The notes below the pieces were generated by a model. It ran no database searches, had not been told where the DNA came from, and saw only the letters and a list, made by a program, of their open reading frames with translations. Of a stretch of DNA of 32,000 nt, positions 6,410 to 25,453 are shown piece after piece. Positions within the stretch are counted from its first letter, which is position 1. The number at the start of each line of letters is the position of its first letter. Source of the stretch: Candidatus Babelota bacterium (GTDB lineage: Bacteria > Babelota > Babeliae > Babelales > Vermiphilaceae); contig JBDHVY010000001.1 in NCBI GenBank assembly GCA_039809905.1, positions 930,001-962,000 on the forward strand, given 5' to 3'. Position numbers and translations under genes: made by a program.

Positions 6410-6463
6410 TATTGTTGATAGATTAATAAATGATCTAAAAAAATTAGTGTTTTGGGGGTTATT

Positions 6464-7078
6464 ATGAAAAACATGTTATTGTTTTGCTCGTTATTTTCTG
6501 CTACGGCTGTGATGGCTTTTGATGTTAGGCCTTTTGACCAAAAAAGTCGTGCCTGGAGCCCTAATATGGCTCGTCTAGAAGTAGAACTTCAAGCAGCGGT
6601 TAAGGCACTAAAAATAAGTAAGTTAGCTTTGGAGAAAGCGGAACAGAATCTTTTGGAAACTGATAAGCATAACCTGTATGTATCTACGAAAGAAACATGG
6701 CATTTCTGCCTTGATCAGGATAAGGATGATTATTATCATAAAAATCCTTTATGCAAAGGAATCCGTGAATTGCAAGCGGTTGCGCTCAACAAATTGAAGG
6801 AACATTCATTGTATCAAAAGCAATACCTTCCATGCTTACAAGAGCATGATCGCAATGAACAGACTGTAGCAATGTTATCGCGAGCGCGAGAATTTGCAGC
6901 AGAGCGAGGCGAGCATCATGAATGGCAAAAAGAATCTATGCTCAATGCGCTTGATTCTAAGAAATTTGAGACTGATGAGTCACTATCTAAATTTTATTTG
7001 GGTACTTCATATGATTATGCTCAAGTATGGGAACAAGCACGTCAAGATGTGCGTAAGTTTATTGAAGGATTAGAATAA
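6464..7078 (+). CDS. Small secreted helical protein, family member 1 (unknown function)
   Basis: ATG 6464 is preceded by GGGGG; the track ORF starts at TTG 6452. Signal peptide is MKNMLLFCSLFSATAVMA/FD. The protein is Q/K/E/A-rich and probably helical, with two Cys. It shares a C-terminal motif with 7843-8418 (QARQDVRKFIEGLE vs QAQQELRDFVENNIK). It shares a post-signal motif with 7167-7808 (FDVRPFD vs YDVDRFN). Confidence 0.75.
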   Translation: MKNMLLFCSLFSATAVMAFDVRPFDQKSRAWSPNMARLEVELQAAVKALKISKLALEKAEQNLLETDKHNLYVSTKETWHFCLDQDKDDYYHKNPLCKGIRELQAVALNKLKEHSLYQKQYLPCLQEHDRNEQTVAMLSRAREFAAERGEHHEWQKESMLNALDSKKFETDESLSKFYLGTSYDYAQVWEQARQDVRKFIEGLE

Positions 7079-7105
7079 AGTTTTTTAAAAATCGGTAACA
7101 TTTTT

Positions 7106-7139
7106 AGCCAGGAGCTATATTTTAGCTTCTGGCTTTTTC
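7106..7139 (+). terminator. Rho-independent terminator
   Basis: 11-bp stem AGCCAGGAGCT (7106-7116) / AGCTTCTGGCT (7124-7134) with one G-U pair and a 7-nt loop, followed by TTTTT (7135-7139). Confidence 0.8.
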
Positions 7140-7166
7140 TCCGGATACTCATTAAAAAATATAGGA

Positions 7167-7808
7167 ATGCTGGTGAATGTTTTGAATAAAAAATACTTCT
7201 TATTAATGGCCTTATTTAATTCGTGTGTTGTGATTAATAGTTACGACGTAGATAGGTTTAATATAGACAGGGAACATCTAGAAAAACTCATGAAAGAATC
7301 AGAACAAAAACAAATAGAATTGTGGAAAAAGAAAGCGATAGCAACTCAAAAATATTTACAAGATAATCCTGAGGTTCTAAAGGATCTTCAAGAGGCATAT
7401 GCAAACTTAAAGAAGAAACCAGAATCGATAGCGCAGGATGCATTAAGAGATCAGCATGGATATAGAGATCGGGGAGATTGGAACAAAAAATTCCAACTAA
7501 TGAATGAACTAAGCAAAAAATGTGAAGAGAGCAGAAAACCATTATTTTTTAGATATATACCGAGGTCAATATTTTTTGGTGAACCAGATTGCAAAGAGCT
7601 TGATAGGTTGCGTGGTGAAGACCGCAAGTTTGTTGCTGAAAGTATACGTTTAGGCAATATCATTTCTGCTTCAGATGAAAAGACAGAAGTTGAAAAAATA
7701 GAAAAAAAAATAAGAGACGAAGTCCGTGGTGTATATGGTTATAACTATGAAAAATTAGATATTGCCGATATGGAAGCAGAATTAAAGAAGTTGCGGATTT
7801 ATGAATAA
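7167..7808 (+). CDS. Small secreted helical protein, family member 2 (unknown function)
   Basis: 213 aa with a hydrophobic N-terminus (KKYFLLMALFNSCVVINS). Charged and probably coiled-coil-rich. It is in tandem with the neighbouring small secreted proteins. Confidence 0.7.
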   Translation: MLVNVLNKKYFLLMALFNSCVVINSYDVDRFNIDREHLEKLMKESEQKQIELWKKKAIATQKYLQDNPEVLKDLQEAYANLKKKPESIAQDALRDQHGYRDRGDWNKKFQLMNELSKKCEESRKPLFFRYIPRSIFFGEPDCKELDRLRGEDRKFVAESIRLGNIISASDEKTEVEKIEKKIRDEVRGVYGYNYEKLDIADMEAELKKLRIYE

Positions 7809-7842
7809 GAAAATGGTATGTAAATAATTTTTATGGGCTACA

Positions 7843-8418
7843 ATGAAAAAAATAATAATTTTGAGCTTCTTTTTTATATCGAATCTATTTGCTGATAATG
7901 CAGTACATAAAGCTATTATGAGGCAAGAATTTGATAGAGTTAAAACTGAAGCTGCTCAGCAATATAATGAGCGAGCTCAACACAAAGCTGTATTGCTTAA
8001 AAGTGATCAAGCAAGAGAATACCTTGCCGCTCAAAAAGATTGGTTTGATAATAGCTGTGCTCATAATACATCTGTAACATGTCAGAATATCAGTCAAAAA
8101 TTACAAAAAGCGTTAGCTCTTTTACAAAAAACAGAAACATATAATCAGCATTATGCACCAGTGCTTAAAGCCTATTATGTTAATGAAAAGAAATATGAGA
8201 TTCTTGGATTAATGGTAAGCATTTCGGTGCAACCAGAACAACTGAATCCGGCAATTAATTCAATTAAAGATCAAATGCTTTATGCAATAGATAGCATGAA
8301 AATAGAAGATAATCCTGAATCATCAAAATTATGGCTCGAGTTTTCATGTGATCGTGGTGCATTGCATAAGCAAGCACAGCAAGAATTACGCGATTTTGTA
8401 GAGAACAACATAAAATAA
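7843..8418 (+). CDS. Small secreted helical protein, family member 3 (unknown function)
   Basis: Signal peptide MKKIIILSFFFISNLFA/DN. The central W..(C)..C..I...LQ.A...L.K...Y.Q.Y.P.L segment and the C-terminus are alignable by eye with 6464-7078. It lies 34 nt after the previous gene. Confidence 0.75.
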   Translation: MKKIIILSFFFISNLFADNAVHKAIMRQEFDRVKTEAAQQYNERAQHKAVLLKSDQAREYLAAQKDWFDNSCAHNTSVTCQNISQKLQKALALLQKTETYNQHYAPVLKAYYVNEKKYEILGLMVSISVQPEQLNPAINSIKDQMLYAIDSMKIEDNPESSKLWLEFSCDRGALHKQAQQELRDFVENNIK

Positions 8419-8433
8419 TTATAAGGACGATTG

Positions 8434-8796
8434 ATGAACAAAAGGATTATGCTCTTATTTTTATTTGCGTGCTCGTTGGCGAATTGCCAAAGACTTCCAT
8501 CATATGAGGATTATTTAAAAGCTAATGATCTAACGGACAAAAAATTTGCAACACCAAATGGGAAGAAAATTCTTGAATTAGATTGTAAGATAAAAGAAAC
8601 ATATGGTTTACTTGAGATAGAAAGTATACGGTGTCAAAAAGCAAATGACTGTGAGACTTCGACAGAATTGCTACGTATTTTTGGTGAGATGCTTAAGTTG
8701 AAAAATGAGCTTAAGCGAGTAGAAGAAGAGGTAGAGAAAGAACCAGCGACTCAAGAGCGCGATAAGCTCTATAAAGAGATACTAAATAAATTATAA
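8434..8796 (+). CDS. Small secreted or lipid-anchored protein (unknown function)
   Basis: ATG 8434 has AAGGA at 8423-8427; the track ORF starts at TTG 8431. The N-terminus MNKRIMLLFLFACSLANCQ is signal-like with a possible Cys anchor. Four further Cys and a charged helical C-terminus follow. Confidence 0.7.
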   Translation: MNKRIMLLFLFACSLANCQRLPSYEDYLKANDLTDKKFATPNGKKILELDCKIKETYGLLEIESIRCQKANDCETSTELLRIFGEMLKLKNELKRVEEEVEKEPATQERDKLYKEILNKL

Positions 8797-13576: not shown

Positions 13577-15394
13577 TTAAGATTTTAGATAAAAAAGTAA
13601 TTTTATGGAACATGCAATATAAAGAAACAATCCTGTTTTTGCTAAGACTAATGATAGATTATTTTTAAAATAATGTAATTTTCTATGCAATGGCTTGGTT
13701 AAAGAATGAAATAGAGAATCCTTATGGACATTTTTAGTAAGTAAAACGATATTACCTATTGTTTGTAGCCAATGTTTAATTTCAATACAACCACCTTGAC
13801 ACCATCCAGAGCAAGGTATCCTTATGCTTATTGCGGCTATTGTTTTGGTATCTTTGTGTTTGCATATCTTCATAAGCTGACTGTACTCATAGTCTGGGTT
13901 AAATCCATATTTTGAAGGAGTCTCGGATTCATTTTTGTGATACAGTAAGGATGGCTCAGTGCTTTTTATATCGCTTAATTGAGTTTTATAAAGATAAGTA
14001 TTATAAGGGCCGTTGTTGTTCTCGATATTATATCCAGTGAATAAAAAATCATTCGTAAGAAAGGCATGTGTCAACAAACCATTTTTTTTGGAATATTCGT
14101 GATCAATACGATGTTCTATAAAATCTGATAAGGTTAAATTATCAATTGATTTATTTGTAATAGTTGCCATTAATTGAGAAAATGATAGCAATAAAACAGT
14201 ATTTTTTTTGCATGAGTTAATTAAAGAAATGAACTCAGTAGGAATTTTTTTGTGAGTACAGGCTGGTGGTTGAGGAACGTCATAGTCTAACCATTCTTTG
14301 GTTATACAACTAAGTACGTTACTGCGTATTATTTGCTGTTGAGGGATGTTGACGGGTTCATTTTCCCATTTTTTTTTGTCTTGTGCCCATTTTTCTTTTT
14401 CTCTAAGGCAGTTATCACAGTCAGGTAATGAACTATAAGGAGATTGCTTGTCTACGCAACAGTTTTGTGCTGCAGAATGTCCTTTATAATGGTGTCTTGC
14501 GATTGTATTTTGATCGTGCGAAATATCGGATAACAAAATATAGTTATCATTTGTATCAATGGTATTGATTCTGAGTTGATTAATTGGTATTCGAAAAGAT
14601 TTAATCGAATTACCTAATTGGACCATGTGTACAAAATTATGCCCTCCCAATAGCACAAGGTTATTTTGTTCATTATAGTCAACCGAGTAGAGTTTTTCAT
14701 TACGAGGAAATGATTGAGAAAGTAGGGTCATTGTTTGTTTTTTTGATGATGATATCAAAGAAGAATTTTTCAAAATAGATCCAGAAGATGAAACAGCCAG
14801 TATGTTATCATTTTCATCTATAAACATTTTTTTTATTACATCTTTTTTCATAAGATGAGCAGTGAGATGATGTACGTTTAATAGTGTAGGTGAAACAATA
14901 TATGCGTTATTCGATTGATAAATATATACGTTGTTTTGATGTGCTACATAATAATTATTTTTTTTACGTGCAATATCATTAACAGGATGTTCATTGCACA
15001 GTTCAGGTACATCATTAAATTTATATTCTATTTTTGAGTAAGGATCAGTTTCTGTAAGAACGTTTAAAATTTTTTTAATTACAGGTTTATCTCGATAATT
15101 ACCTCCACTTAGTTCCCAGTGATCAACCATTTTATATTCAGAATAACAAGTGAATAACTTATTATTACTATCTAAACATACTAATACGTTATCGACTAAG
15201 TCCTTGTTGTGGTGATAGCCGTAATGCAGGAAGGGACTTATGTTTACTATCGGATGTTCTCCAATTTGGCATGGAATAACACGACTGGTGCTTGCAGTAT
15301 AATCTCGGTTAAACTCTTCAGGTTCACTTGCAAAGGAAGTTTTGAAAGAAAAAAATAGAGCAAAAATTATGAGTGTATAACGATTGTTGATCAT
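13577..15394 (-). CDS. Paralog A of a lineage-specific 600-aa family (signal peptide, Cys-rich ectodomain, C-terminal TM anchor)
   Basis: 605 aa with signal MINNRYTLIIFALFFSFKTSFA/SE and a C-terminal hydrophobic segment (LAKTGLFLYIACSIKLLFYL). Conserved islands shared with 15801-17633 include LLGGHNF, YILLSD, HKGH..Q.CC, YDVPQPP.C.HK and HWL..I.NI. No known domain recognised. Confidence 0.85.
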   Translation of the reverse strand: MINNRYTLIIFALFFSFKTSFASEPEEFNRDYTASTSRVIPCQIGEHPIVNISPFLHYGYHHNKDLVDNVLVCLDSNNKLFTCYSEYKMVDHWELSGGNYRDKPVIKKILNVLTETDPYSKIEYKFNDVPELCNEHPVNDIARKKNNYYVAHQNNVYIYQSNNAYIVSPTLLNVHHLTAHLMKKDVIKKMFIDENDNILAVSSSGSILKNSSLISSSKKQTMTLLSQSFPRNEKLYSVDYNEQNNLVLLGGHNFVHMVQLGNSIKSFRIPINQLRINTIDTNDNYILLSDISHDQNTIARHHYKGHSAAQNCCVDKQSPYSSLPDCDNCLREKEKWAQDKKKWENEPVNIPQQQIIRSNVLSCITKEWLDYDVPQPPACTHKKIPTEFISLINSCKKNTVLLLSFSQLMATITNKSIDNLTLSDFIEHRIDHEYSKKNGLLTHAFLTNDFLFTGYNIENNNGPYNTYLYKTQLSDIKSTEPSLLYHKNESETPSKYGFNPDYEYSQLMKICKHKDTKTIAAISIRIPCSGWCQGGCIEIKHWLQTIGNIVLLTKNVHKDSLFHSLTKPLHRKLHYFKNNLSLVLAKTGLFLYIACSIKLLFYLKS

Positions 15395-15441
15395 GATTGT
15401 TATTATTTCATTAAAGAAGTTAGTTTTTTGTATGTTTTTAA

Positions 15442-15797
15442 TTATTTTTCAAATTGGTGATACTGTTTTAATGCATAAATTGCCAAGATAAATGATCCCA
15501 TAGATAGCCCTATAAACAACCCTGTTTTTTCCAAAAATGGTGCTAGATTATTTGTAACCCAAAACGATTTTCTTTGTAATGAAGTCATTAAAGAACGAGG
15601 CCAACTGTTTTCATATATATTTTTACTAAATAAAACTACTATATTATTTATCTTTTGTTCCCAGTGCTCTTTTTGAGTTGCAATCTAACCTATCCCATTG
15701 AGAACACATAGTTCTTATGGGTATTGTGGCTATTGCAGATCCATCTTTATTTGTACATATTTTCATTGAGCGAGTGGTATTATGAAGAAATAAAAAA
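15442..15797 (-). pseudogene. Orphan, frameshifted 3'-terminal fragment of a third member of the 600-aa family
   Basis: My minus-strand translation gives NTTRSMKICTNKDGSAIATIPIRTMCSQWDRLDC. After a 1-nt frame change it continues ATQKEHWEQKINNIVVLFSKN...LQRK...NNLAPFLEKTGLFIGLSMGSFILAIYALKQYHQFEK, then a stop at 15442-15444. This aligns with the last ~110 aa of paralog A (YSQLMKICKHKDTKTIAAISIRIPCSGWCQGGCIEIKHWLQTIGNIVLLTKN...LAKTGLF...). No 5' part and no start codon are present. Confidence 0.7.
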
Positions 15798-15800
15798 CTA

Positions 15801-17633
15801 TCATAAAATTCCTATAAGCAGAGCGAGTTTATATAGTGCAAAGAAAGTACAGGTCTGTATTGCTAGTGAGCCAAATATATGTATTGAAGCTAGAGGTACA
15901 TCTAATGTTTTAAAATGCCGTATTGCTCTGCGCAATGATCTCATTAAAGAACTTACCCTAGCATCACCAGATGGGTTGTTTTTACTGAACAAAGCAATAT
16001 TGTGTATTCTCTCAAGCCAATGTTCTTTTGAAGTGCAAAAGAATTGACACCATTTAGAGCACAAAATTGTTTTATCGATTATGGCTATTGTTCCGTTTTC
16101 GTTTCTTTGTATTATCAGAGAAAGAGACATAGGGGCACTTTCATAATTAGAATTTTTTAAATCTGGTTCACTTGAATAATAGAATGATTTTTCGTATGGA
16201 GTTTTAAAAAGTTGGTTAATTGTGTCTTTATTTATAGTATTGAGTGGAACTTGATAAATAAAATGATTAAGGGAAGAATGTACTGTTTTGAGACATCCAA
16301 TGAATAAAAAATCATTGATAAGAAAGGCATTAACCAATGTGTCACATTCGTTCAAATGTTTATGATGAATACGATGTTTTATAAGTTTAGCACGAGTGGA
16401 ATTTTCTGTCATGGCGCCTATTAAGCTAGAAAGCGATAGTAATACAATAGTATTTTCTCTACACGAATTGATAAAAGAAGTAGCTTTCGCATCAGGTGTT
16501 TTGTGTGGACACTCTGGTGGTTGAGGAACATCATAATGCAAATACTGTTGTATGTCCTGATTGATTGTTTTGCGTGTTGTTTTCAGGGAGATTTCAAGTT
16601 TTTGATTTTCCCAAGATTCTTTTCGCTGTTGCCAATTTTTTTTGTATTCTGTGCATGTTTGACAATCCCTTAAGGTATTATGAGGAAAAGTTTTTTCTAT
16701 ACAGCATTGCTGTTTTGCATGATGTCCTTTATGGTTACGAGTTTCTCTTTCATTTTGATTTTGTATGAGATCAGATAATAAAATATACTCATTGTTGGTA
16801 TCAATATGAGAAATCCTTAGTTGATCAATGGCTATCTGAATGGCCTTCATAGAATCATTTAATGGTATTATCTGTATAAAATTATGGCCTCCCAATAGCA
16901 CAATATTATTTAGTTCATTATAGGCAATTGAGTATAATATTTCATCAGAGGGAAATGTTTGGTAAAGAAATGAAAGGATCTGTTTATCCGAGGATTGTGA
17001 ATGAGAAGAGTTTCTTAGTACACATCCAAGTGATGTAATGGCTATCACATTATCATCTTTATCTATAAATATTTTCTTGATTATGTGTTGATCATCTTTG
17101 CTTTTCAGATGATTTCTACGTAATAATGCAAGCGATCTAATATGCGCATTATTCGATTGATAAATGTATACATTGTTTTGATGAGCTACATAATAATTAT
17201 TTTTCCTGCGTGCTATATCATTAACAGGATATTCATTGCATAATTCAGGTACATCGTTAAATTTATATTCTATTTTTGTGTAAGAATCTGTTTCTGTAAG
17301 AACGTTTAATTTTTTTTGAATTATAGGATTTGTTCGATAGCCTGTCGATAGTTCCCAGTGATCAACCATTTTATATCCGGAATAACACGTGAATAATTTG
17401 TTATTGCTATCTAAACATACTAGCACATTATCTACCAAGTCTTTATTGTGGAGATAACCGTCATGTTTGAAGAGGTTGTTGGTTATTGAATACTCTCCAA
17501 TGCCACACGAAATAACACGGCTTGTACTTGCGGTGTAATCTCGCTTAAATTCTTCAGATTTTTCACTTGCAAAGAAATTTTTAAAAGAAAAAAATAGAGC
17601 AAAAATTATGAGCTTATAATTATTTTTGATCAT
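15801..17633 (-). CDS. Paralog B of the lineage-specific 600-aa family
   Basis: 610 aa with signal MIKNNYKLIIFALFFSFKNFFA/SE and a C-terminal hydrophobic tail (FGSLAIQTCTFFALYKLALLIGIL). The first ~170 aa are nearly identical to paralog A; the remainder is much more divergent. Confidence 0.85.
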   Translation of the reverse strand: MIKNNYKLIIFALFFSFKNFFASEKSEEFKRDYTASTSRVISCGIGEYSITNNLFKHDGYLHNKDLVDNVLVCLDSNNKLFTCYSGYKMVDHWELSTGYRTNPIIQKKLNVLTETDSYTKIEYKFNDVPELCNEYPVNDIARRKNNYYVAHQNNVYIYQSNNAHIRSLALLRRNHLKSKDDQHIIKKIFIDKDDNVIAITSLGCVLRNSSHSQSSDKQILSFLYQTFPSDEILYSIAYNELNNIVLLGGHNFIQIIPLNDSMKAIQIAIDQLRISHIDTNNEYILLSDLIQNQNERETRNHKGHHAKQQCCIEKTFPHNTLRDCQTCTEYKKNWQQRKESWENQKLEISLKTTRKTINQDIQQYLHYDVPQPPECPHKTPDAKATSFINSCRENTIVLLSLSSLIGAMTENSTRAKLIKHRIHHKHLNECDTLVNAFLINDFLFIGCLKTVHSSLNHFIYQVPLNTINKDTINQLFKTPYEKSFYYSSEPDLKNSNYESAPMSLSLIIQRNENGTIAIIDKTILCSKWCQFFCTSKEHWLERIHNIALFSKNNPSGDARVSSLMRSLRRAIRHFKTLDVPLASIHIFGSLAIQTCTFFALYKLALLIGIL

Positions 17634-17999
17634 AACTATTATTGATCCTATGAGCTGATGAACTTTTGTTTATATGTTTTAATTATTATTGAAAAATGTT
17701 TATTTGTCGAATGTATTTCCAAGTATGTTAAAAAAATAAGTCGATAGATTTTTGTTATAAAGTTGTATAAATATTTTCAGTTGTAAAACGATAGTGAAAT
17801 ATTTTGCAGATGATATTTCCAACAATATTGCACAAGTCCTTGCTTTTGTTATTTCTTTTTTATTAAAACTTGGACATTAGTTTTATTGCTTGTGCGAGCA
17901 GAAGATGTTGACATTCTAGAATAATCGGGGTATGCGTGTAAGAGCATACTGCATTAGAATGATGTAATAAAATGAGAAAAAATATCTCTTGAACGGAGT

Positions 18000-18087
18000 C
18001 CCCATTTTATCCCCACTTTCGCTATCGCTTCACCGGGGTCCTCATGTGAAACGAAGTAAAACCAGGGGTGAAAAATAGAGAATGGGG
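18000..18087 (+). promoter_or_regulatory. G-run/C-run structured element in the 5' leader of the 1446-aa gene (candidate regulatory RNA)
   Basis: Two CCCC runs (18000-18003, 18011-18014) and three GGGG runs (18035-18038, 18065-18068, 18084-18087) lie in an otherwise very A/T-rich 500-bp intergenic region. A small hairpin TTCAC (18029-18033) / GTGAA (18046-18050) is also present. Alternative C4:G4 pairings are possible. Confidence 0.25.
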
Positions 18088-18134
18088 TTAATAAGTAGTG
18101 AAGTAGTAGTTTTTCTAAAAAAAAGGGTGAGTAT

Positions 18135-21100
18135 ATGAAAAGATGCTTTTCTCGCTATCGATTAGCTCTTTTTGCGATATCTTTAGCGTCCTCCACGATT
18201 TTTGCAGATCAGATATGGAGGGGAATAACAACATGCGATGTTGTTGATGAAAATCTTGTCATCAAAGATGATGTCTTGCTTCCACTTGGTGGAATAAGAA
18301 TCGAAGCAATTCACAAAGATGTTACGGTTACATTAACAAGAGATGTAGTCATTAGTGGCCATTGGGCTGGCGAATCCGATCTTTATTTAGTTGCTGCAGA
18401 AGGCAGAAAAATTCGTTTTGAATTAGAGCATGATCTAACATTTGTTGGATCTTCTGCTATTACAAGCGATGATCTTTTAATTGTTCAAAGTGGTCCTGGT
18501 ACCGTTGAAGTTGCTATTCAAGATGGCAATGTTTTTGAACTTACTTCACGAGATTGTTCTGGTGGTGCGTTGTATTACGTACTCATGTATGGTGGTGTAA
18601 ATGCACCGATTGATGAATATTGTCACGATGAATATGCAAAACCATGTTGTGATGAATATACATGTGGTGGATTATTTGATGAATATGGTGATGAATATTG
18701 TTCACCAGGTAATGGTTGCAACGAAACAAGTCAAGAGAGACCAACACTGAGTTTTGTTTCACTAGAAAATGTATTACGTGCACCATTACAAAATAAACGT
18801 GTTATTGTTGGTCCTAAATCCAAATTGAGCTACTTATCATCTCGTAAAGTTGGTGTAGGTCAAGATTCTGGTATCATCCAATTTGATGCTGCAATTGATG
18901 GCCCAGGACGTATGATTTTGGAACTTCAAGATAAAGGTGCGGTAGTTATAACTGGTATTTACACATGCCAAAGAGATGGTGGTTGTATTACGTTGTGTGA
19001 TATTAAACCTACTGTTGCGGCAGGAAGTGAAGCTATCTTTAGAACAATAAATAGTTTAGGTTCTTTTGTTTCAGCGGGATTGCTTGTATTAGATGGTAAT
19101 GAAACTTTATCTGAACTATTGATTGATCCATTTTTAAATCTTGGTGCGCGCGATGATGCACAAGCATTCCGTGGAACATTCTCAGGTAGACGATATGGTT
19201 TTGTTCTTGGTGCTAATGGTGTGTTATCTATTACTTCTGATTCATACCTTGATTTTGTTGGTCTTGCGCTCAACCAAATTCCTTGCATTGCATTACGTAC
19301 ACCACTTCAAATAACTAAAACATTAAAATTACGTAATCCATCTGCGCTTATTATCGATGGTAATCTTAATCCGCAAGCTACCGATGCACAAATACTCTTT
19401 GAAGAAAGAGCTGCTTTATTCTTACGATCAGGCGTTGGTCAAGATTGCACTATTCGTGATGAATTTGATATGGATCCATTCACGGTAGATGCAGATAATC
19501 ATACTCCTGGTATTGGTAACATAGTATTTGATGTTGAAGGTGAATTGAATGTTATTGGTGCAACGTCTCCAGCTGATGGCGTTACCAGTAAGATTGAATT
19601 ATTATCATTAGAAGTGTTTCCAACCGGTGGACCTCTATTTGTAGGTTCAGGAGAAACAAATTTCCCATTACGCACGTTTAATACAGAAGATAATGAACTT
19701 CTTATGTATAACTGCGGTGCGTTCTTAATTAATAATATCATGACATTAACTGATACAGATTTAAGCCATACAGATGAATGTCATAACGTTTGTCCAAATA
19801 ATGATCTTAGATCAGAACCAACATATGTTGGTGGTGAAACATTCAGACTACTTGAGTCGGATGTAAGACCAAGTATTCGTTTTATTAATGCACAGCTTGA
19901 TGTACATACTGATATAGCATTAACAGGTATGGATTTAGTTGTTCCAAACTTTGTTGATGATATGGGTGTATTGCAACAAAATCTTTCTAACTTTACTTTC
20001 TTCTCTAATGGTTCATGTGTTGATAATGGTACCGGTCGCTCCATGATTCTTGGTACACGTATTGGTTCAACAGCTGCTGATGGATGCACTCGTATCGATG
20101 CAGATGCGCATCTTGATGTTATGCAATTAGAAGATGCAAATTCATCTAATGTTGATCCTCTCAATCCAGATGGTGATCAAACATTAGAACTTTTAACTGC
20201 AATGAATGATGATACTATTAACAACTTGATTATAGATAATGATAGTACTTCAATTCACAACATATTCTTAGGTGGTACAAGTAATATTTCTATCGGTGTT
20301 AATGCAGATTCTACTGGATTTAATATTGATACCCACCCATGGCTTCGTATTGCGGGTAACGTGTTTTCATTCACTGCTCGTGGTGGAGAAGCTACTGTAT
20401 TGCGTAGTATTACTTCAGGTAAAAACGCGATATTTGTTGATTTGAATGGTAAATTCAGTATTGATCCAGGATTTATCGCAAGTATTTGCGTGATGGTTAT
20501 TAAGAGCCATAATGGTATTGTTGATCTTCCTGCTGATCAAGTTTTCTTCTGTGCAGGTGCTGGTATTACAACATGGGATGTTGATCTATCAAATCCAGAT
20601 GATCAAATAATTATTGGTCCTGATCAATCTTTATCAACATATATATTCAATTGGATTCTTGCGCATAAAGATTGTCCAAACTTTACACCATTCAATTGTT
20701 GTACGACGTCGTGCACATGCCCAGTAGTTACTGAAGCAAATGTAACAGGTTTACCGACAATTCAAGGCACGGTGAATGATTTACAAATTCAAGGCAGCCG
20801 TATTGGTGATCCAGCTCAATTCTTGATTGATGGTGGTTTTGTTCGCCAATTAACTTTCTTGGATAGTGCTTGTGCTGCAGTTGCTCCGGTAGCTGTTATT
20901 ACATTAGCAAACAATGGTCGTATTGGTCTTGATTCTACCACAAACTTAGGCGTAAACGGTATTACCATTATTGCTAATGGTTCTGGTCAAGTTTTGGTCA
21001 ATGATGATCTGATTATTAATAATATGTGTGCGTTTGTAAAAGGTCCTGATTTTGCATCATGCGATGTATTAGAATTATACAGCGCAGTACCACGTGAAAT

Positions 21101-22475
21101 TCGTGTGAAATCAACTGGTACACTTAATCTGACTTCATTTACTAATCCAACAGAGATTGTTGCTCTTGCAGGTCAATTAAAATTGGTTGTAGAACCAGGT
21201 GCCAAAATTATTACTGGCGCAGGAACTCTACGATTCAGTGGTGATTCTCAACTATTATTCGAGCCAGCAAATAATGCAGTAGATTTCTTTGCTGCAATTC
21301 CACATGGTGCACACGATGATACGCTTGCTATAGAAACAGTTGATGCAGCAGATGTCCATAACATACTTTCTTCATTGACCAATTTTGCAAATGGTTTGCA
21401 TAATACTGATCAATTCCGTGTCAGCATTGTTGGTGGTGGTACTATTGAATTAGTTGATAATGCACAAGGTTCATTACCGTTCAATGCGTTTGTTGGTATT
21501 GAAACAATTAATACGGCGACATGCTCAATTCCAACAACAGACATCACCTTGAATATTGCTGATAATGGTGTGTTTGCAATTGGACATTTCAATTACAATG
21601 AAGGCGGTGTGTTGCAAATAGGTAACGTTGAAGATCTTGGAGTTGATCATAGCGTGAGCTTTACGCTTACTCTTGATGGTGAAAATGCTAATTTCACTAT
21701 CGGTAGCCGTGGATTCTTAGGTCTTGGCGTTGGTATTGAACGTTTTGATGGTCAACCTGAAGTGTTAACTGTTCGTGCTCGCACATGTCCAACTAACTTT
21801 GTACCAAATGAAAATATCGTTGATACATTGAGCAACGTTTCAAACATTACCTTTAACTTCCTCAATGGTCGCTTTGAGCATGATCGTATCTTCTCAGGAG
21901 ATAACGTTAATGCTTCATTAGTAGCTGTTGGAAATAATGAGGGTATGACGTTTGATCTTAATTTTGAAGTTGATGGTGAAAATGTTGATGTTACTTTAGA
22001 AAGAACATCAGACTTTAATGTTGCTGGTGGCGGTAACATGGTATTAGTTTCAGAAGGTGTTGGTGGTATTCATCCGGTTGTACTTGATCAAAATGGTGTG
22101 ATTACCGATCGCTTGAGTGCAGGTGTTATGGCATCAACATTGTTAGAACCAGATAACGTTGATGTGACAGGATTAACTGCCGCGGAATTCTTTGATTACT
22201 TTACTACGCATGATGCATTATTATCTCAAGATCGCATTAATACTCTTGGCAGAGCAAACGCTGCAAGTCAGGGTGATAGCTTTAGACCAGGATTTGATGG
22301 TGCTCGAATTGATACGGTGATTAATGGTAATATTGTTCGTGGACCATTGTATCAGTTGCTTGGCTCAGGTGATCAAAATTCTCAACGTCAAGATGCAATT
22401 GATGTTGCAGCAGTGTTTGTCAATATTGATGGCAGATTGAATGAGATTCTTACTGCAACAAATATAGAAAACTAA
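18135..22475 (+). CDS. Giant secreted surface-protein candidate (beta-helix-like composition), unknown family
   Basis: 1446 aa with SD-like GGGTGAG 4 nt before the ATG. Signal peptide MKRCFSRYRLALFAISLASSTIFA/DQ. Gly/Asp/Asn/Thr/Val/Ile-rich with many short strand-like segments. Cys clusters include a DEY-Cys cluster and FNCCTTSCTCP. The C-terminus (...LTATNIEN) has no barrel signature. Confidence 0.9.
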   Translation: MKRCFSRYRLALFAISLASSTIFADQIWRGITTCDVVDENLVIKDDVLLPLGGIRIEAIHKDVTVTLTRDVVISGHWAGESDLYLVAAEGRKIRFELEHDLTFVGSSAITSDDLLIVQSGPGTVEVAIQDGNVFELTSRDCSGGALYYVLMYGGVNAPIDEYCHDEYAKPCCDEYTCGGLFDEYGDEYCSPGNGCNETSQERPTLSFVSLENVLRAPLQNKRVIVGPKSKLSYLSSRKVGVGQDSGIIQFDAAIDGPGRMILELQDKGAVVITGIYTCQRDGGCITLCDIKPTVAAGSEAIFRTINSLGSFVSAGLLVLDGNETLSELLIDPFLNLGARDDAQAFRGTFSGRRYGFVLGANGVLSITSDSYLDFVGLALNQIPCIALRTPLQITKTLKLRNPSALIIDGNLNPQATDAQILFEERAALFLRSGVGQDCTIRDEFDMDPFTVDADNHTPGIGNIVFDVEGELNVIGATSPADGVTSKIELLSLEVFPTGGPLFVGSGETNFPLRTFNTEDNELLMYNCGAFLINNIMTLTDTDLSHTDECHNVCPNNDLRSEPTYVGGETFRLLESDVRPSIRFINAQLDVHTDIALTGMDLVVPNFVDDMGVLQQNLSNFTFFSNGSCVDNGTGRSMILGTRIGSTAADGCTRIDADAHLDVMQLEDANSSNVDPLNPDGDQTLELLTAMNDDTINNLIIDNDSTSIHNIFLGGTSNISIGVNADSTGFNIDTHPWLRIAGNVFSFTARGGEATVLRSITSGKNAIFVDLNGKFSIDPGFIASICVMVIKSHNGIVDLPADQVFFCAGAGITTWDVDLSNPDDQIIIGPDQSLSTYIFNWILAHKDCPNFTPFNCCTTSCTCPVVTEANVTGLPTIQGTVNDLQIQGSRIGDPAQFLIDGGFVRQLTFLDSACAAVAPVAVITLANNGRIGLDSTTNLGVNGITIIANGSGQVLVNDDLIINNMCAFVKGPDFASCDVLELYSAVPREIRVKSTGTLNLTSFTNPTEIVALAGQLKLVVEPGAKIITGAGTLRFSGDSQLLFEPANNAVDFFAAIPHGAHDDTLAIETVDAADVHNILSSLTNFANGLHNTDQFRVSIVGGGTIELVDNAQGSLPFNAFVGIETINTATCSIPTTDITLNIADNGVFAIGHFNYNEGGVLQIGNVEDLGVDHSVSFTLTLDGENANFTIGSRGFLGLGVGIERFDGQPEVLTVRARTCPTNFVPNENIVDTLSNVSNITFNFLNGRFEHDRIFSGDNVNASLVAVGNNEGMTFDLNFEVDGENVDVTLERTSDFNVAGGGNMVLVSEGVGGIHPVVLDQNGVITDRLSAGVMASTLLEPDNVDVTGLTAAEFFDYFTTHDALLSQDRINTLGRANAASQGDSFRPGFDGARIDTVINGNIVRGPLYQLLGSGDQNSQRQDAIDVAAVFVNIDGRLNEILTATNIEN
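18612..18698 (+). repeat. Five dispersed copies of GATGAATAT (Asp-Glu-Tyr) interleaved with Cys codons
   Basis: GATGAATAT occurs at 18612, 18627, 18651, 18678 and 18690. Together they encode IDEYCHDEYAKPCCDEYTCGGLFDEYGDEYCSPGNGC. Confidence 0.9.
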
Positions 22476-22484
22476 TTAAAAAAA

Positions 22485-22510
22485 GGATGGGTGATAGAAG
22501 TCACCCATCC
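22485..22510 (+). terminator. Intercistronic stem-loop without a clear U-tract (attenuator or mRNA-stabiliser candidate rather than a full terminator)
   Basis: Perfect 10-bp stem GGATGGGTGA (22485-22494) / TCACCCATCC (22501-22510) with loop TAGAAG, followed by CTTATCTG rather than a T-run. It lies 10 nt after the stop of the 1446-aa gene. Confidence 0.4.
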
Positions 22511-22539
22511 CTTATCTGCAATGAAAAAAGGTAGTTTGT

Positions 22540-24411
22540 ATGGATGTAATAAAAAAAAGGAAACTGATGAAGAAAACCTTAAAGAGCATTGCGCTTCTAG
22601 GCGCATTATGTGGTGGGTCACTTCATGCGACTTTTCAATTTAGATCGCCGCTGAGTTTAGAAGATCGCGGTTATATGCACTGGTTACTTGCACCAGCTGA
22701 TCAAGCGTGGTGGTATGATCAAATGCCAAGTGAAAAAACTCGTACAGATTGGAATGTTCACGTGTGGGGCGCTGGTTATGTGCGTAATGCATGCGAAGCT
22801 TTTTTATCGTGCACTCCTTGTTCTAATAAAGTAACTCGTGATACAACATCACTTTCTCAACTCTTTTTTGGTAAATCAGTGTTTCGCGGTGAAGATATTT
22901 TTGCTGGTGGAACATTCGCTGGTAATCCAACTGCTCTTGAACTTGTAAACTCAATAAATCCATTTTTAGCGTTTGCGCGTATTAGCCCTGTTTTTGATTA
23001 CAATGAAACAGGCGCACATATAGGTGTTGATTTTGCTAAATATCTTGGCGAAAATGATAGGTTCCATGTTGGTGCAAGAACCTATATTCCTTATAAAATA
23101 ATTGAAATTGAACAAGATACAAGCATTCAACTTGAAGAAACATTAGATGATGTTTTTATAACAAGAATAGTCAAACTTAATGAAGGACCAACTCCTAACC
23201 AAGTTGAATATGCTCTAAGATATGATTTCTTAAGCACTCTTGTGTTTAATACAGTAACGACACCTTCTGCAATAGTTCAACCACAACCTGTTGTGGTATA
23301 TAATAATCCGGCAGGACAAGTTAGCGTGACTGGTGTACAAATTTCTGCACCTACATCTGCTGGTGATGGTGTAGACACAGATATTCCTGCTGCCTATTTT
23401 ACTAAAAGCGATGCAGGTACGACGCCAATACCGCCATTTAGAAAATTACCAAGTCAAGCAGGGCAACCATTAGGGCCTGATGGACAAGGTATAAATGGTC
23501 AATCATATTTTATGCAAACAGGTGTTGATTATGCTGGGCAGTTACAAAACGATAGAGATGCGCAAACCACTTTATTTCTTGTGCCGCGTTCAAATGTAGA
23601 TGGTACTATAACTGCTAATGCTCAAACTATTCTAACGAACGTCAGACAAATTGTTAATGACGATCTTGCCATTTCCGAACCAGCTTCTACGTTCTTTTTA
23701 AATAATGGCATTAATCTTTTAGCGCATGAATGTATCAGAGGTGTGGGCGATTTATTTGCCGAAGTATATGGTGGTATTGGACATTATGATGATTGGTTTG
23801 TAGATGGTATTTTTGGCGTTCAATTTCCAACAGCAAAACGCCAAGAACATGCAAAACAAATTTTTTATCAAACACTTGGTAACAATGGCCATGTTGAAAT
23901 TAAACTTGCTCTAGATGGTGGTTGGAGACCGCGCGAGTGGTTTGCTTTTGAAATTCGTCCATCATTCTTCCATGCATGTAAGCGTTCTGAAAGACGTGCT
24001 GCTCCATTCTTAGGTGCAACTGTTGCAAATATTGGACCAGAAATTGATGTAAATGTTTCATGGAATTATTTTGTGCTTCGTACAGACTTTAGTTTCTTCC
24101 ATCCACACAATCCTGATCTCGGATTTGTATTAGGATATGAACTATTTGCTAAAGGAAATGACAGAGTATCATTTGGTTCATGCATTCCATGTGATAATGA
24201 AACAGCAACAGATTTGCTAGGCCGTCCAAATCAACCACTCAGCCTTGCTATTTATGAACATGGTACAAATTCCCTCACCAATAAATTACGTGGTCAAATA
24301 TTCTATCGTTGCCACTATTTTGAAGTCTTTGGTGGTGGAACACAAATTGTTTCTGGTAGACATGCTATGAAAGAAAGTGAAGGTCATATTGGTTTAGCAA
24401 TATACTTCTAG
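22540..24411 (+). CDS. Outer-membrane beta-barrel protein candidate (porin or anchor), unknown family
   Basis: 623 aa with signal peptide MKKTLKSIALLGALCGGSLHA/TF; the second Met at 22567 has AAGGA 5 nt upstream and may be the true start. Aromatic-rich alternating segments are present. The C-terminal strand HIGLAIYF ends in Phe, like a BAM substrate beta-signal. There is a central P/Q/G/T-rich insert, and two CxxC pairs (CTPC, CIPC). Confidence 0.8.
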   Translation: MDVIKKRKLMKKTLKSIALLGALCGGSLHATFQFRSPLSLEDRGYMHWLLAPADQAWWYDQMPSEKTRTDWNVHVWGAGYVRNACEAFLSCTPCSNKVTRDTTSLSQLFFGKSVFRGEDIFAGGTFAGNPTALELVNSINPFLAFARISPVFDYNETGAHIGVDFAKYLGENDRFHVGARTYIPYKIIEIEQDTSIQLEETLDDVFITRIVKLNEGPTPNQVEYALRYDFLSTLVFNTVTTPSAIVQPQPVVVYNNPAGQVSVTGVQISAPTSAGDGVDTDIPAAYFTKSDAGTTPIPPFRKLPSQAGQPLGPDGQGINGQSYFMQTGVDYAGQLQNDRDAQTTLFLVPRSNVDGTITANAQTILTNVRQIVNDDLAISEPASTFFLNNGINLLAHECIRGVGDLFAEVYGGIGHYDDWFVDGIFGVQFPTAKRQEHAKQIFYQTLGNNGHVEIKLALDGGWRPREWFAFEIRPSFFHACKRSERRAAPFLGATVANIGPEIDVNVSWNYFVLRTDFSFFHPHNPDLGFVLGYELFAKGNDRVSFGSCIPCDNETATDLLGRPNQPLSLAIYEHGTNSLTNKLRGQIFYRCHYFEVFGGGTQIVSGRHAMKESEGHIGLAIYF

Positions 24412-24443
24412 AAATGTATTTTTTTGAAAAAAAGGAATGAAAT

Positions 24444-25358
24444 ATGAAAAAGATACTTTTTTCAGCAATTGCGTTTGTTGCGATAAGTGCGTCTTCTGGT
24501 GCGTTAGCAGATGCGGCAAAATGTTCGCCATGTCAAGCTAAAAAATCAGCAGCAGATGCTCTGCAACAATCAATCAAAGAAGCGGCAGCAGCTGTGCTTG
24601 CTGCAGGTGGAGCATTTTCACGTGAACAAGAGCTAGATAGTGGCAATGATGCTGCCAAAGGTTGTGGATGTGGAGGTTCAAAAACAAGACGTGATGAGCT
24701 TGATCAAATTATTAGTGATAAACAACTTACTGTTGCTGCATGTTGTGATTTTTGTGCAGAACCAGGTAGCCTTGGTTGTCAAGGCGTAAATAGCTCTCGT
24801 TGCAATACATGTCAGCAAGGGTTAATTAAAATGTCTATTGCAGAAGCTGCTGCAGATGCGCTTGCTGCTATAGAAGCATTAGCACAAGAAGCTGAATTAG
24901 ATATTGTTCCTGCAGATCTATCACGTGCACCACGTGAAGAACTTGGCGATCCATGTGATCCTTGCGCTACTACGACTACAGTATGTGATGTGAATCTTTG
25001 TGATATTAATCAGCAACTTAACGCATTGCGTTGCTGCTGTGCATCAGTTGCTCAACGATTGACATGCCAAGCTAAAGATGCAAAAAGATGTTGCAGAAAA
25101 TTAAAACACGAAATACATGAGGTTGAAGAACTGGTTGAATCAGTACTTGATCAATCAGCAGATTGTTGTTCGCTTATAGATTCTGTTCTTGGCGATCCAC
25201 TTACATCGTCTGCAATAGATATTCCTGCGTGTGTTTTTGCGCCAGACATTGTTAGTGTTGTTGATAGCACTGATGCTGATATATTAACATGGCTTAAGAG
25301 TCTTTATGTGCTTTTATTCCAAGTGTATCAGTGTGCTTGTAATCCATGTGCGGGATAA
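24444..25358 (+). CDS. Cysteine-rich secreted envelope protein candidate
   Basis: 304 aa with AAGGAA upstream and signal peptide MKKILFSAIAFVAISASSGALA/DA. I count about 26 Cys, in CxxC, CC and CCC clusters, between Ala-rich helices. It starts 32 nt after the barrel gene. Confidence 0.85.
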   Translation: MKKILFSAIAFVAISASSGALADAAKCSPCQAKKSAADALQQSIKEAAAAVLAAGGAFSREQELDSGNDAAKGCGCGGSKTRRDELDQIISDKQLTVAACCDFCAEPGSLGCQGVNSSRCNTCQQGLIKMSIAEAAADALAAIEALAQEAELDIVPADLSRAPREELGDPCDPCATTTTVCDVNLCDINQQLNALRCCCASVAQRLTCQAKDAKRCCRKLKHEIHEVEELVESVLDQSADCCSLIDSVLGDPLTSSAIDIPACVFAPDIVSVVDSTDADILTWLKSLYVLLFQVYQCACNPCAG

Positions 25359-25392
25359 TGAGATAAGAAATATTCTTATTTTTTAGATAAAA

Positions 25393-25430
25393 GGGTTGGA
25401 CGCGACAAAAACTGCGTCCGGCTCTTTTTT
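25393..25430 (+). terminator. Rho-independent terminator closing the three-gene module
   Basis: Stem GGACGC (25398-25403) / GCGTCC (25414-25419), extendable with G-U pairs to 25393/25424, with a 10-nt loop and then TTTTTT (25425-25430). An A/T hairpin ATAAGAA-ATA-TTCTTAT plus a T-run lies just upstream. Confidence 0.75.
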
Positions 25431-25453
25431 AATGTCAATATAAGACTAAAATA

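Follow-up and report, generated by a model that had tools for sequence, protein, structure and literature searches.

A conserved gene pair of the Dependentiae encodes a predicted secreted beta-helix protein and a predicted 12-stranded outer-membrane barrel

Type Va autotransporters such as Hbp, EspP and pertactin combine, in one polypeptide from one transcript, a Sec signal, a long beta-helical exoprotein and a 12-stranded barrel that depends on the beta-barrel assembly machinery (BAM). In rickettsial rOmpB, the cleaved beta-helix passenger remains on its 12-stranded barrel as a surface layer. Type Vb systems (TpsA/TpsB) instead use adjacent genes for a large beta-helix exoprotein and its outer-membrane barrel, the latter being a 16-stranded Omp85 protein with two POTRA domains. 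FapF, the Pseudomonas amyloid secretion channel, exports a separately encoded polypeptide, and the outer membrane complex of the obligately intracellular chlamydiae, whose wall is likewise reduced, brings together a beta-helix surface protein (Pmp), a barrel (MOMP) and Cys-rich proteins (OmcA/OmcB). The locus analyzed here recalls each of these arrangements in part. It consists of three + strand open reading frames (ORFs) in a 32,000-nucleotide stretch of a Candidatus Babelota genome (Babeliales, Dependentiae/TM6; assembly GCA_039809905.1, contig JBDHVY010000001.1, positions 930,001 to 962,000; hereafter the window, in which all coordinates are given): 18135..22475 (1446 aa, the giant), 22540..24411 (623 aa, the barrel) and 24444..25358 (304 aa, the Cys-rich gene). 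No published description of a giant-barrel module was found in the literature.

The first two genes form a conserved, co-oriented and probably co-transcribed pair, encoding a secreted protein of predicted beta-helix fold and a predicted BAM-type 12-stranded barrel that belong to no described family. In 17/17 other species-level Dependentiae genomes, the giant gene immediately precedes the barrel gene; the barrel is 34% to 70% identical to that of the window. The wider order o234-potABCD-giant-barrel-...-metG is kept in most of the 17, and L009, L012, L014 and L015, which lack the usual flanks, have retained the pair. An original prediction, made from the window alone, had treated all three genes as one module, to be checked by their synteny in relatives. 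The giant-barrel adjacency withstood this check, but a profile of the 304-aa family detects the third gene in only nine of 18 loci (the window, L001–L007 and L016). Since the third gene is thus detectable only in the closer subclade, the conserved unit is the pair and not the trio. The distance matrices of giant and barrel correlate with r = 0.98, and a partial r of 0.70 is left after removing metG and potA (permutation p ~0.001), a suggestive figure that is, however, confounded by similar rates. Both evolve only moderately faster than metG, pointing to a constrained structural role.

All three ORFs are real genes. Word-index searches returned 75 homologues for the giant, 92 for the barrel and 42 for the Cys-rich protein, all unannotated and, where a source is named, assigned to 'Candidatus Babeliales' or 'Candidatus Dependentiae'. 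Pfam, NCBIfam and the PDB sequences contain no match to any of the three proteins. Scans of Pfam and NCBIfam, distant barrel homologues included, gave nothing usable; phmmer and family-profile searches of the PDB sequences gave spurious matches to designed proteins only, and the barrel family profile retrieved nothing relevant there. The statement that no named family motif is recognizable thus stood in all of these searches, and profile hits to already characterized systems, on which the idea of a new module could have foundered, were looked for in Pfam and NCBIfam without any being obtained. By inspection, each N-terminus reads as a classic Sec signal peptide with a basic n-region and a hydrophobic core, as had been proposed for all three products, and the apparent cleavage sites are IFA/DQ in the giant, LHA/TF in the barrel and ALA/DA in the 304-aa protein. 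Neither internal sequence repeats in the giant nor paralogues of the module were found in the window.

The giant (18135..22475, + strand) is a secreted, acidic (pI 4.3) and lysine-poor (1.5%) protein whose predicted fold is a beta-helix. Its homologues number 75 of ~1450 aa, 33–78% identical, and one remote match of 1711 aa. The signal peptide, read from sequence as residues 1–24 (18135..18206, ...STIFA/DQ), is followed by an N-terminal module at about residues 25–157 (18207..18605). We noted that L014 carries seven tandem genes (L014:208-5098) for proteins of 215–249 aa with signal peptides, paralogous to the N-terminal ~150 residues of the giant and located upstream of its giant homologue (L014:5296-9966); such stand-alone paralogues suggest an N-terminal module capable of folding and acting independently. 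Next comes an acidic linker of DEY repeats and Cys (residues 158–200, 18606..18734), in which DEY occurs five times (at residues 160, 165, 173, 182 and 186). The linker varies in length between homologues, with an alignment gap fraction of 0.26–0.42 versus ~0 elsewhere in the protein.

Structure prediction and fold comparison of the giant cover residues 247–1446 (18873..22472). AlphaFold2 models this body as a long, non-repetitive beta-solenoid with a mean predicted local distance difference test score (pLDDT) of 89.0 and a predicted template modelling score (pTM) of 0.72. The model is composed almost entirely of short strands, ends in a small alpha/beta C-terminal portion and contains no barrel, and the C-terminus itself (...TATNIEN) lacks an aromatic terminal residue. 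The best folds in the PDB are the passengers of Hbp, Hap, Ag43, EspP, SepA, EspC, IgA1 protease, pertactin and EtpA. These structural matches are weak (best E = 1.2e-3, template modelling (TM) score ~0.2), hence they assign the giant to a fold class and not to a homologous family. Comparison with a viral structure library returned generic parallel beta-helices only, and matches to the S-layer protein RsaA were remote and non-significant (E ~2). Model and fold neighbours together agree with the earlier description of the giant as a beta-helix protein devoid of a barrel or beta-signal of its own. Low lysine is a trait of the family (median 1.8%, range 0.8–4.0%, versus 6–13% in neighbouring soluble proteins).

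The 623-aa product (22540..24411, + strand), which had been put forward as a barrel candidate to be examined by structure prediction and Foldseek, is confidently modelled as a 12-stranded outer-membrane beta-barrel (AlphaFold2 pLDDT 85.8, pTM 0.79). The predicted strands span residues 71–88, 152–169, 175–192, 397–414, 419–429, 453–465, 468–487, 501–521, 524–538, 578–591, 594–607 and 613–622, and strand 1 is preceded by an aromatic-rich, highly conserved segment of ~40 residues. Turns of 2–5 residues connect the strands on one side, taken as periplasmic, and the other side bears a 60-residue loop and an alpha/beta insert of ~200 residues between strands 3 and 4 (residues 193–396, 23116..23727, delimited by DSSP and pLDDT). 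This insert, in which lysine makes up 1.5%, is predicted to be extracellular because the number of strands is even and the short turns lie on the opposite side. The signal peptide was read as residues 1–30 (22540..22629, ...SLHA/TF). The database copy of the protein (P0001; NCBI and Logan) begins at M10 (22567), and the start context of the barrel gene, GTATGGAC, is kept in relatives.

BAM-type beta-signals follow the pattern polar-x-G-x-x-hydrophobic-x-aromatic, into which the residues of HIGLAIYF at the end of the barrel (24385..24408) fit. G618 and F623 of this motif are conserved in at least 90% of 50 homologues, and the window encodes a BamA with POTRA and Omp85 domains (3411-6314), so that the proposed identification of the motif as a beta-signal gains in weight. 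In Foldseek searches, the barrel matched FapF (5o67, E = 1.8e-8, TM score on target 0.66) and the COG4313 channel (4rl8, TM score 0.71–0.74 normalised on target), and further the beta-domains of EstA, EspP and BrkA as well as FadL; the matched barrels are 12–14-stranded and all matches are at 5–9% identity. An exhaustive profile search placed the barrel family at 492 clusters at 50% identity; among the 150 clusters listed, most members are near full length (~560–730 aa) and a few are shorter fragments. One distant homologue matched PF13557 with E = 0.028, short of the cut-off.

With these models in hand, the locus can be set against the described systems. It shares with type Va autotransporters the Sec signal, the long beta-helical exoprotein, the 12-stranded BAM-type barrel and, probably, the single transcript, and the giant model has the beta-helical character of a type Va passenger, by matches that are weak (E at least 1.2e-3). 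Unlike in type Va, however, passenger and barrel are separate polypeptides with a signal peptide each, PF03797 is unmatched and no C-terminal beta-domain is fused to the giant; the barrel carries its ~200-residue extracellular insert, and no covalent linker helix could thread the pore. A frameshifted autotransporter was considered and rejected, given that the split is conserved in 17/17 genomes. Like type Vb, the locus has adjacent genes for a large beta-helix exoprotein and an outer-membrane barrel, but the barrel here has 12 strands and lacks POTRA domains. Omp85, POTRA and ShlB gave no Pfam match in the barrel even at E <= 1, only ~40 residues precede strand 1 in the model, and BamA, the real Omp85 protein of the window, was readily detected. 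Moreover, the giant has no detected two-partner secretion (TPS) domain (PF05860, Pfam scan) and no NPN[LGI] motif (NPNL/NPNGI). The missing motif, together with 12 rather than 16 strands, ruled out TPS identity.

The channels of the FapF, COG4313 and Phenol_MetA_deg type provide the best folds for the 623-aa protein: they are 12-stranded, match with TM scores of 0.66–0.74 on target, and in the case of FapF export a separately encoded polypeptide. They differ in that sequence identity is 5–6% and the barrel has no Pfam membership; FapF furthermore possesses an N-terminal coiled coil, a plug helix and small amyloid-subunit substrates, and no fap genes are present here. The resemblance to the chlamydial complex extends to the obligately intracellular lifestyle, the reduced wall and the set of beta-helix surface protein, barrel and Cys-rich protein. 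By contrast, no component is homologous, and Cys is conserved only in the third, subclade-confined protein. The giant contains one GGAL and five FxxN, for which shuffled sequences predict 0.27 and 5.7; the Pmp motifs are thus at chance level, as the reported absence of GGA[ILV]/FxxN repeats had anticipated, and Pmp identity was rejected on these counts. On these defining features, the module falls outside the TPS, classical autotransporter and chlamydial-complex families.

The third gene (24444..25358, + strand) was characterized from its ORF, its homologues and the family alignment. It encodes a secreted protein, Ala/Glu-rich and probably helical, with exactly 26 Cys (8.6%), in line with the earlier estimate of about 26. 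Its family has variable numbers of internal repeats and conserves KCSPC, ACCxFCAxPGSLGCQG, LRCCC, KCCKKLKH and a C-terminal TWLKSLY..CxC; RAPR is invariant (RAPRE with a near-invariant E165). Outside the nine loci with this gene, the position behind the barrel is occupied by unrelated secreted ORFs of 162–551 aa or is empty (L010, L013). We also noted five same-strand secreted proteins (516, 501, 804, 405 and 299 aa) after the barrel in L015 (L015:11915-19653) and three (551, 574 and 791 aa) in L017 (L017:11916-17904), with 6–23 Cys and no detectable relation to the 304-aa family. L010 is the only genome in which metG directly follows the barrel; just past metG (14146-19803) it encodes a signal-peptide protein of 1885 aa with 57 Cys.

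Clustered cysteines had been proposed as a common feature of all three products. The named motifs are indeed present, namely the DEY-Cys cluster and FNCCTTSCTCP in the giant and CTPC and CIPC in the barrel, but the Cys content of these two proteins is ordinary: 2.1% in the giant and 1.4% in the barrel, versus 0–4% (most 0.8–3%) in other proteins of the window. Only the 304-aa protein is enriched, and only there are Cys residues invariant. Across homologues, Cys number from 1 to 43 in the giant and from 0 to 26 in the barrel, with few conserved columns, and L007 has a Cys-free barrel beside a 23-Cys giant and a 25-Cys third protein. Given such poor conservation, a disulfide lattice of the chlamydial kind could at most be a lineage-specific extra, and the case for the proposed disulfide-linked lattice of all three proteins is weak. 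In 16 loci, ignoring phylogeny, the number of Cys in the giant is correlated with the number in the downstream ORF (rho = 0.63, p = 0.009) and not with the number in the barrel (rho = -0.36), which suggests that any disulfide chemistry would join the giant to the accessory protein, and in some lineages only.

The arrangement of genes and RNA elements bears on expression. With three same-strand genes separated by 64 nt and 32 nt, as first described, and with terminators downstream, the three plausibly form one transcription unit, in agreement with the original prediction. Two terminator hairpins, each followed by a U-run, lie at 25360..25436 (+ strand, -29.3 kcal/mol, z = -6.1) and close the unit; these are the tandem terminators noticed earlier, both with T-runs. 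A further hairpin lies between giant and barrel genes (22482..22513, + strand, -19.5 kcal/mol). Folding substantiated this stem-loop (z = -5.5 versus shuffles), and it is indeed without a T-run on the + strand; the giant-barrel gap has no promoter-like block of its own. A strong hairpin follows the stop codon of the giant at the same place in 12/17 related loci (L001–L007, L010–L012, L016 and L017), its position and strength being kept while its sequence is entirely different from genome to genome, in keeping with an element that processes, stabilises or attenuates the transcript.

Upstream of the giant, what had been called a 500-bp leader turned out to be a 501-nt intergenic stretch (17634..18134) between the giant and a divergent - strand gene. 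Within it, ~195 nt before the ATG, a promoter-like block was read as TTGACA-N17-TATGCG(TG) (17908..17939, + strand), that is TTGACA-N17-TATGCGTG; the block TTGACAT..AATAATCGGGGTATGCGTG is conserved in eight genomes (L001–L007 and L016), and its function would be that of a promoter. The end of the leader with the ribosome-binding site, AGTAGTGAAGTAGTAG...AAAAAAAAGGGTGAGTAT (18094..18134, + strand), is nearly invariant across eight loci. Given that both elements are kept in relatives, the real leader is probably ~195 nt long. We noted that the second hexamer of the block, TATGCG, is a poor sigma-70 -10 element; conservation of the block may accordingly reflect a regulator site or another sigma factor. 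A structured 5' leader or riboswitch was ruled out, because the Rfam scan of the window returned zero matches and the predicted fold of the leader is no more stable than that of shuffles (z = -0.23). In the window, a GC-rich segment is inserted into the leader at 17990-18090 (GGAGTCCCCATTTTATCCCC...CCGGGGTCCTCATGTGAAA...GGGGTGA...AATGGGG), and in L001 and L002 a similar motif, GGGGTCCCCATGTGAAA, precedes the promoter block (~5420-5450). The segment contributes no significant fold and has no second copy within the window, and with this single occurrence the idea that it is a repeat was dismissed.

The reading that we favor, and whose chances we place just short of even, is that the pair constitutes a lineage-specific envelope module of the Dependentiae, a type V-like split pair of exoprotein and translocator or anchor that forms a surface coat. 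As we infer the export route, the surface location, the giant-barrel contact and the disulfide bonding, gene 1 would supply a Sec-exported, acidic, lysine-poor beta-helix protein of ~150 kDa, and gene 2 a 12-stranded barrel with a large extracellular insert, to be inserted by BamA, the gene for which lies 12 kb upstream. The barrel would act as the dedicated outer-membrane partner of the giant, as a translocation pore and/or surface anchor, such that the pair would work as an autotransporter split into two polypeptides and beta-helix rods would coat the cell surface. The hairpin after the giant would probably tune the giant:barrel ratio in favor of the giant. In the Babeliales subclade of the window, a third co-transcribed secreted, helical 26-Cys protein would be added, probably cross-linking or capping the giant through disulfides. 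This reading is supported by the nearest solved folds, all of them type V passengers for the giant, and FapF, COG4313 and autotransporter beta-domains for the barrel; the conservation of the hairpin in structure and not in sequence, and lysine depletion as a family trait, also count for it. The non-canonical passenger-plus-translocator pair that was one of the earlier suggestions fits these folds and the 17/17 adjacency. A more specific version, in which a 12-stranded POTRA-less barrel both exports and holds a separate beta-helix as a new architecture, the coat stabilises an outer membrane without lipopolysaccharide (LPS), and clade-specific accessory proteins share the operon slot, is tentative and somewhat unlikely in all its parts.

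Several considerations weigh against the split-pair reading. The fold matches of the giant (best E = 1.2e-3, TM score ~0.2) would support a fold class only, and the predicted barrel resembles 12–14-stranded barrels of several functions, uptake channels such as COG4313 and FadL included. Since most of these reduced genomes share the gene order of the whole region from bamA to metG, adjacency is weaker evidence than it may seem; the residual mirror-tree correlation may stem from similar rates and saturation, and the Cys correlation takes no account of phylogeny. To our knowledge, there is no precedent for a passenger that is not covalently joined to its 12-stranded barrel. Finally, the type II secretion system of the Dependentiae could export the folded giant instead (PMC4776705). 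A rather unlikely alternative is that the two genes are co-expressed but functionally separate. The barrel, comparable to COG4313 or FadL, would then be the principal uptake channel or porin of these transport-dependent parasites and the giant an adhesin or effector that leaves by another route, e.g. type II, their adjacency being due to the frozen gene order of these small genomes. The COG4313 (TM score 0.71–0.74) and FadL folds, the faint PF13557 match of one distant family member (E = 0.028), the equally conserved order o234-potABCD-giant-barrel-metG and the reported presence of a type II system in all TM6 genomes (PMC4776705) would all be expected on this account. It sits less well with a pair that is intact where the flanks have changed (L009, L012, L014 and L015), with the short gap, conserved hairpin and lack of a separate promoter-like block, and with the residual co-variation of evolutionary rates.

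We consider it improbable that the giant is instead periplasmic. It would then form a protein sheet beneath the outer membrane, tethered via the barrel, that replaces Lpp, Pal, OmpA and OmpM and, in some lineages, murein, with a function akin to that of the OmcB layer in chlamydiae. The short turns of 2–5 residues and ~40-residue N-terminal segment leave little of the predicted barrel on the periplasmic side, the large domains being opposite, and lysine depletion and an acidic, passenger-like beta-helix fit an exposed protein better. Still, conservation of the giant is high for a protein that is exposed, ten Dependentiae genomes yielded none of the four known outer-membrane tethers (Lpp, Pal, OmpA and OmpM; bioRxiv 10.1101/2021.05.31.446380), and dense, dark-staining periplasmic material has been described in Chromulinavorax (PMC6561590). 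The main analogy of the original prediction, in which all three proteins form a disulfide-cross-linked complex equivalent to chlamydial Pmp/MOMP/OmcA/OmcB, appears quite improbable: the Cys of giant and barrel are poorly conserved, down to 1 and 0, and ordinary for the window, the third gene is detectable in only 9/18 loci, and no protein has a Pfam match to chlamydial outer-membrane-complex families. What speaks for it is the third protein, with 8.6% Cys and conserved Cys motifs, the joint variation of Cys counts in the giant and the downstream ORF, and the intracellular life and reduced wall of the organism (PMC4776705, PMC4378268). That the locus is a divergent member of an established system, either TpsA/TpsB or a frameshift-disrupted classical autotransporter, is highly improbable. 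Nothing beyond the giant's beta-helix fold and the barrel's 12 strands favors such an origin, against which stand the 12 strands instead of 16, the lack of POTRA/Omp85 features, of a TPS-domain match and of an NPNL motif, and the fact that each gene has its own signal peptide, start codon and ribosome-binding site. Being conserved in 17/17 genomes, the split is likewise no product of a frameshift.

The module bears on how the Dependentiae construct their envelope. Babeliales are without LPS synthesis genes (PMC4776705) and Babela is without murein synthesis genes (PMC4378268). The pair is phylum-wide, strongly conserved, confidently modelled and unannotated, and we regard it as a good candidate for the protein machinery behind the unusual outer envelope of the phylum; the module offers a concrete, clonable starting point. 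The novelty would lie in the split 12-strand architecture, which has no known precedent for a beta-helix exoprotein and its outer-membrane barrel partner and whose mechanism we infer. If the barrel does handle a separately encoded beta-helix, this would be a new architecture in type V-like secretion and would bear on the origins of autotransporters, by fusion or fission of passenger and barrel. The giant also suggests itself most readily as the principal surface antigen or adhesin in contacts with protist hosts.

The module stands 4–8 points above its flanks in GC content. The window also encodes gltX, the 967-aa BamA, potABCD, an EamA transporter, an ankyrin protein and metG. BamA is unusually long, its Omp85 domain occupying only residues 647–965. 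Two paralogous genes on the - strand (13577-17633; 605 and 610 aa, 51% identical), with signal peptides, ~2.7% Cys and no Pfam match, lie between potD and the giant in this window only; in related loci with pot genes upstream, potD is directly followed by the giant. At 6452-8796, four small Lys/Glu-rich ORFs (208, 213, 191 and 121 aa) with no Pfam match are placed between bamA and a conserved 234-aa gene. The 234-aa gene directly follows bamA in L002, L005, L008 and L017, and the four-ORF stretch therefore looks like a lineage-specific insertion.

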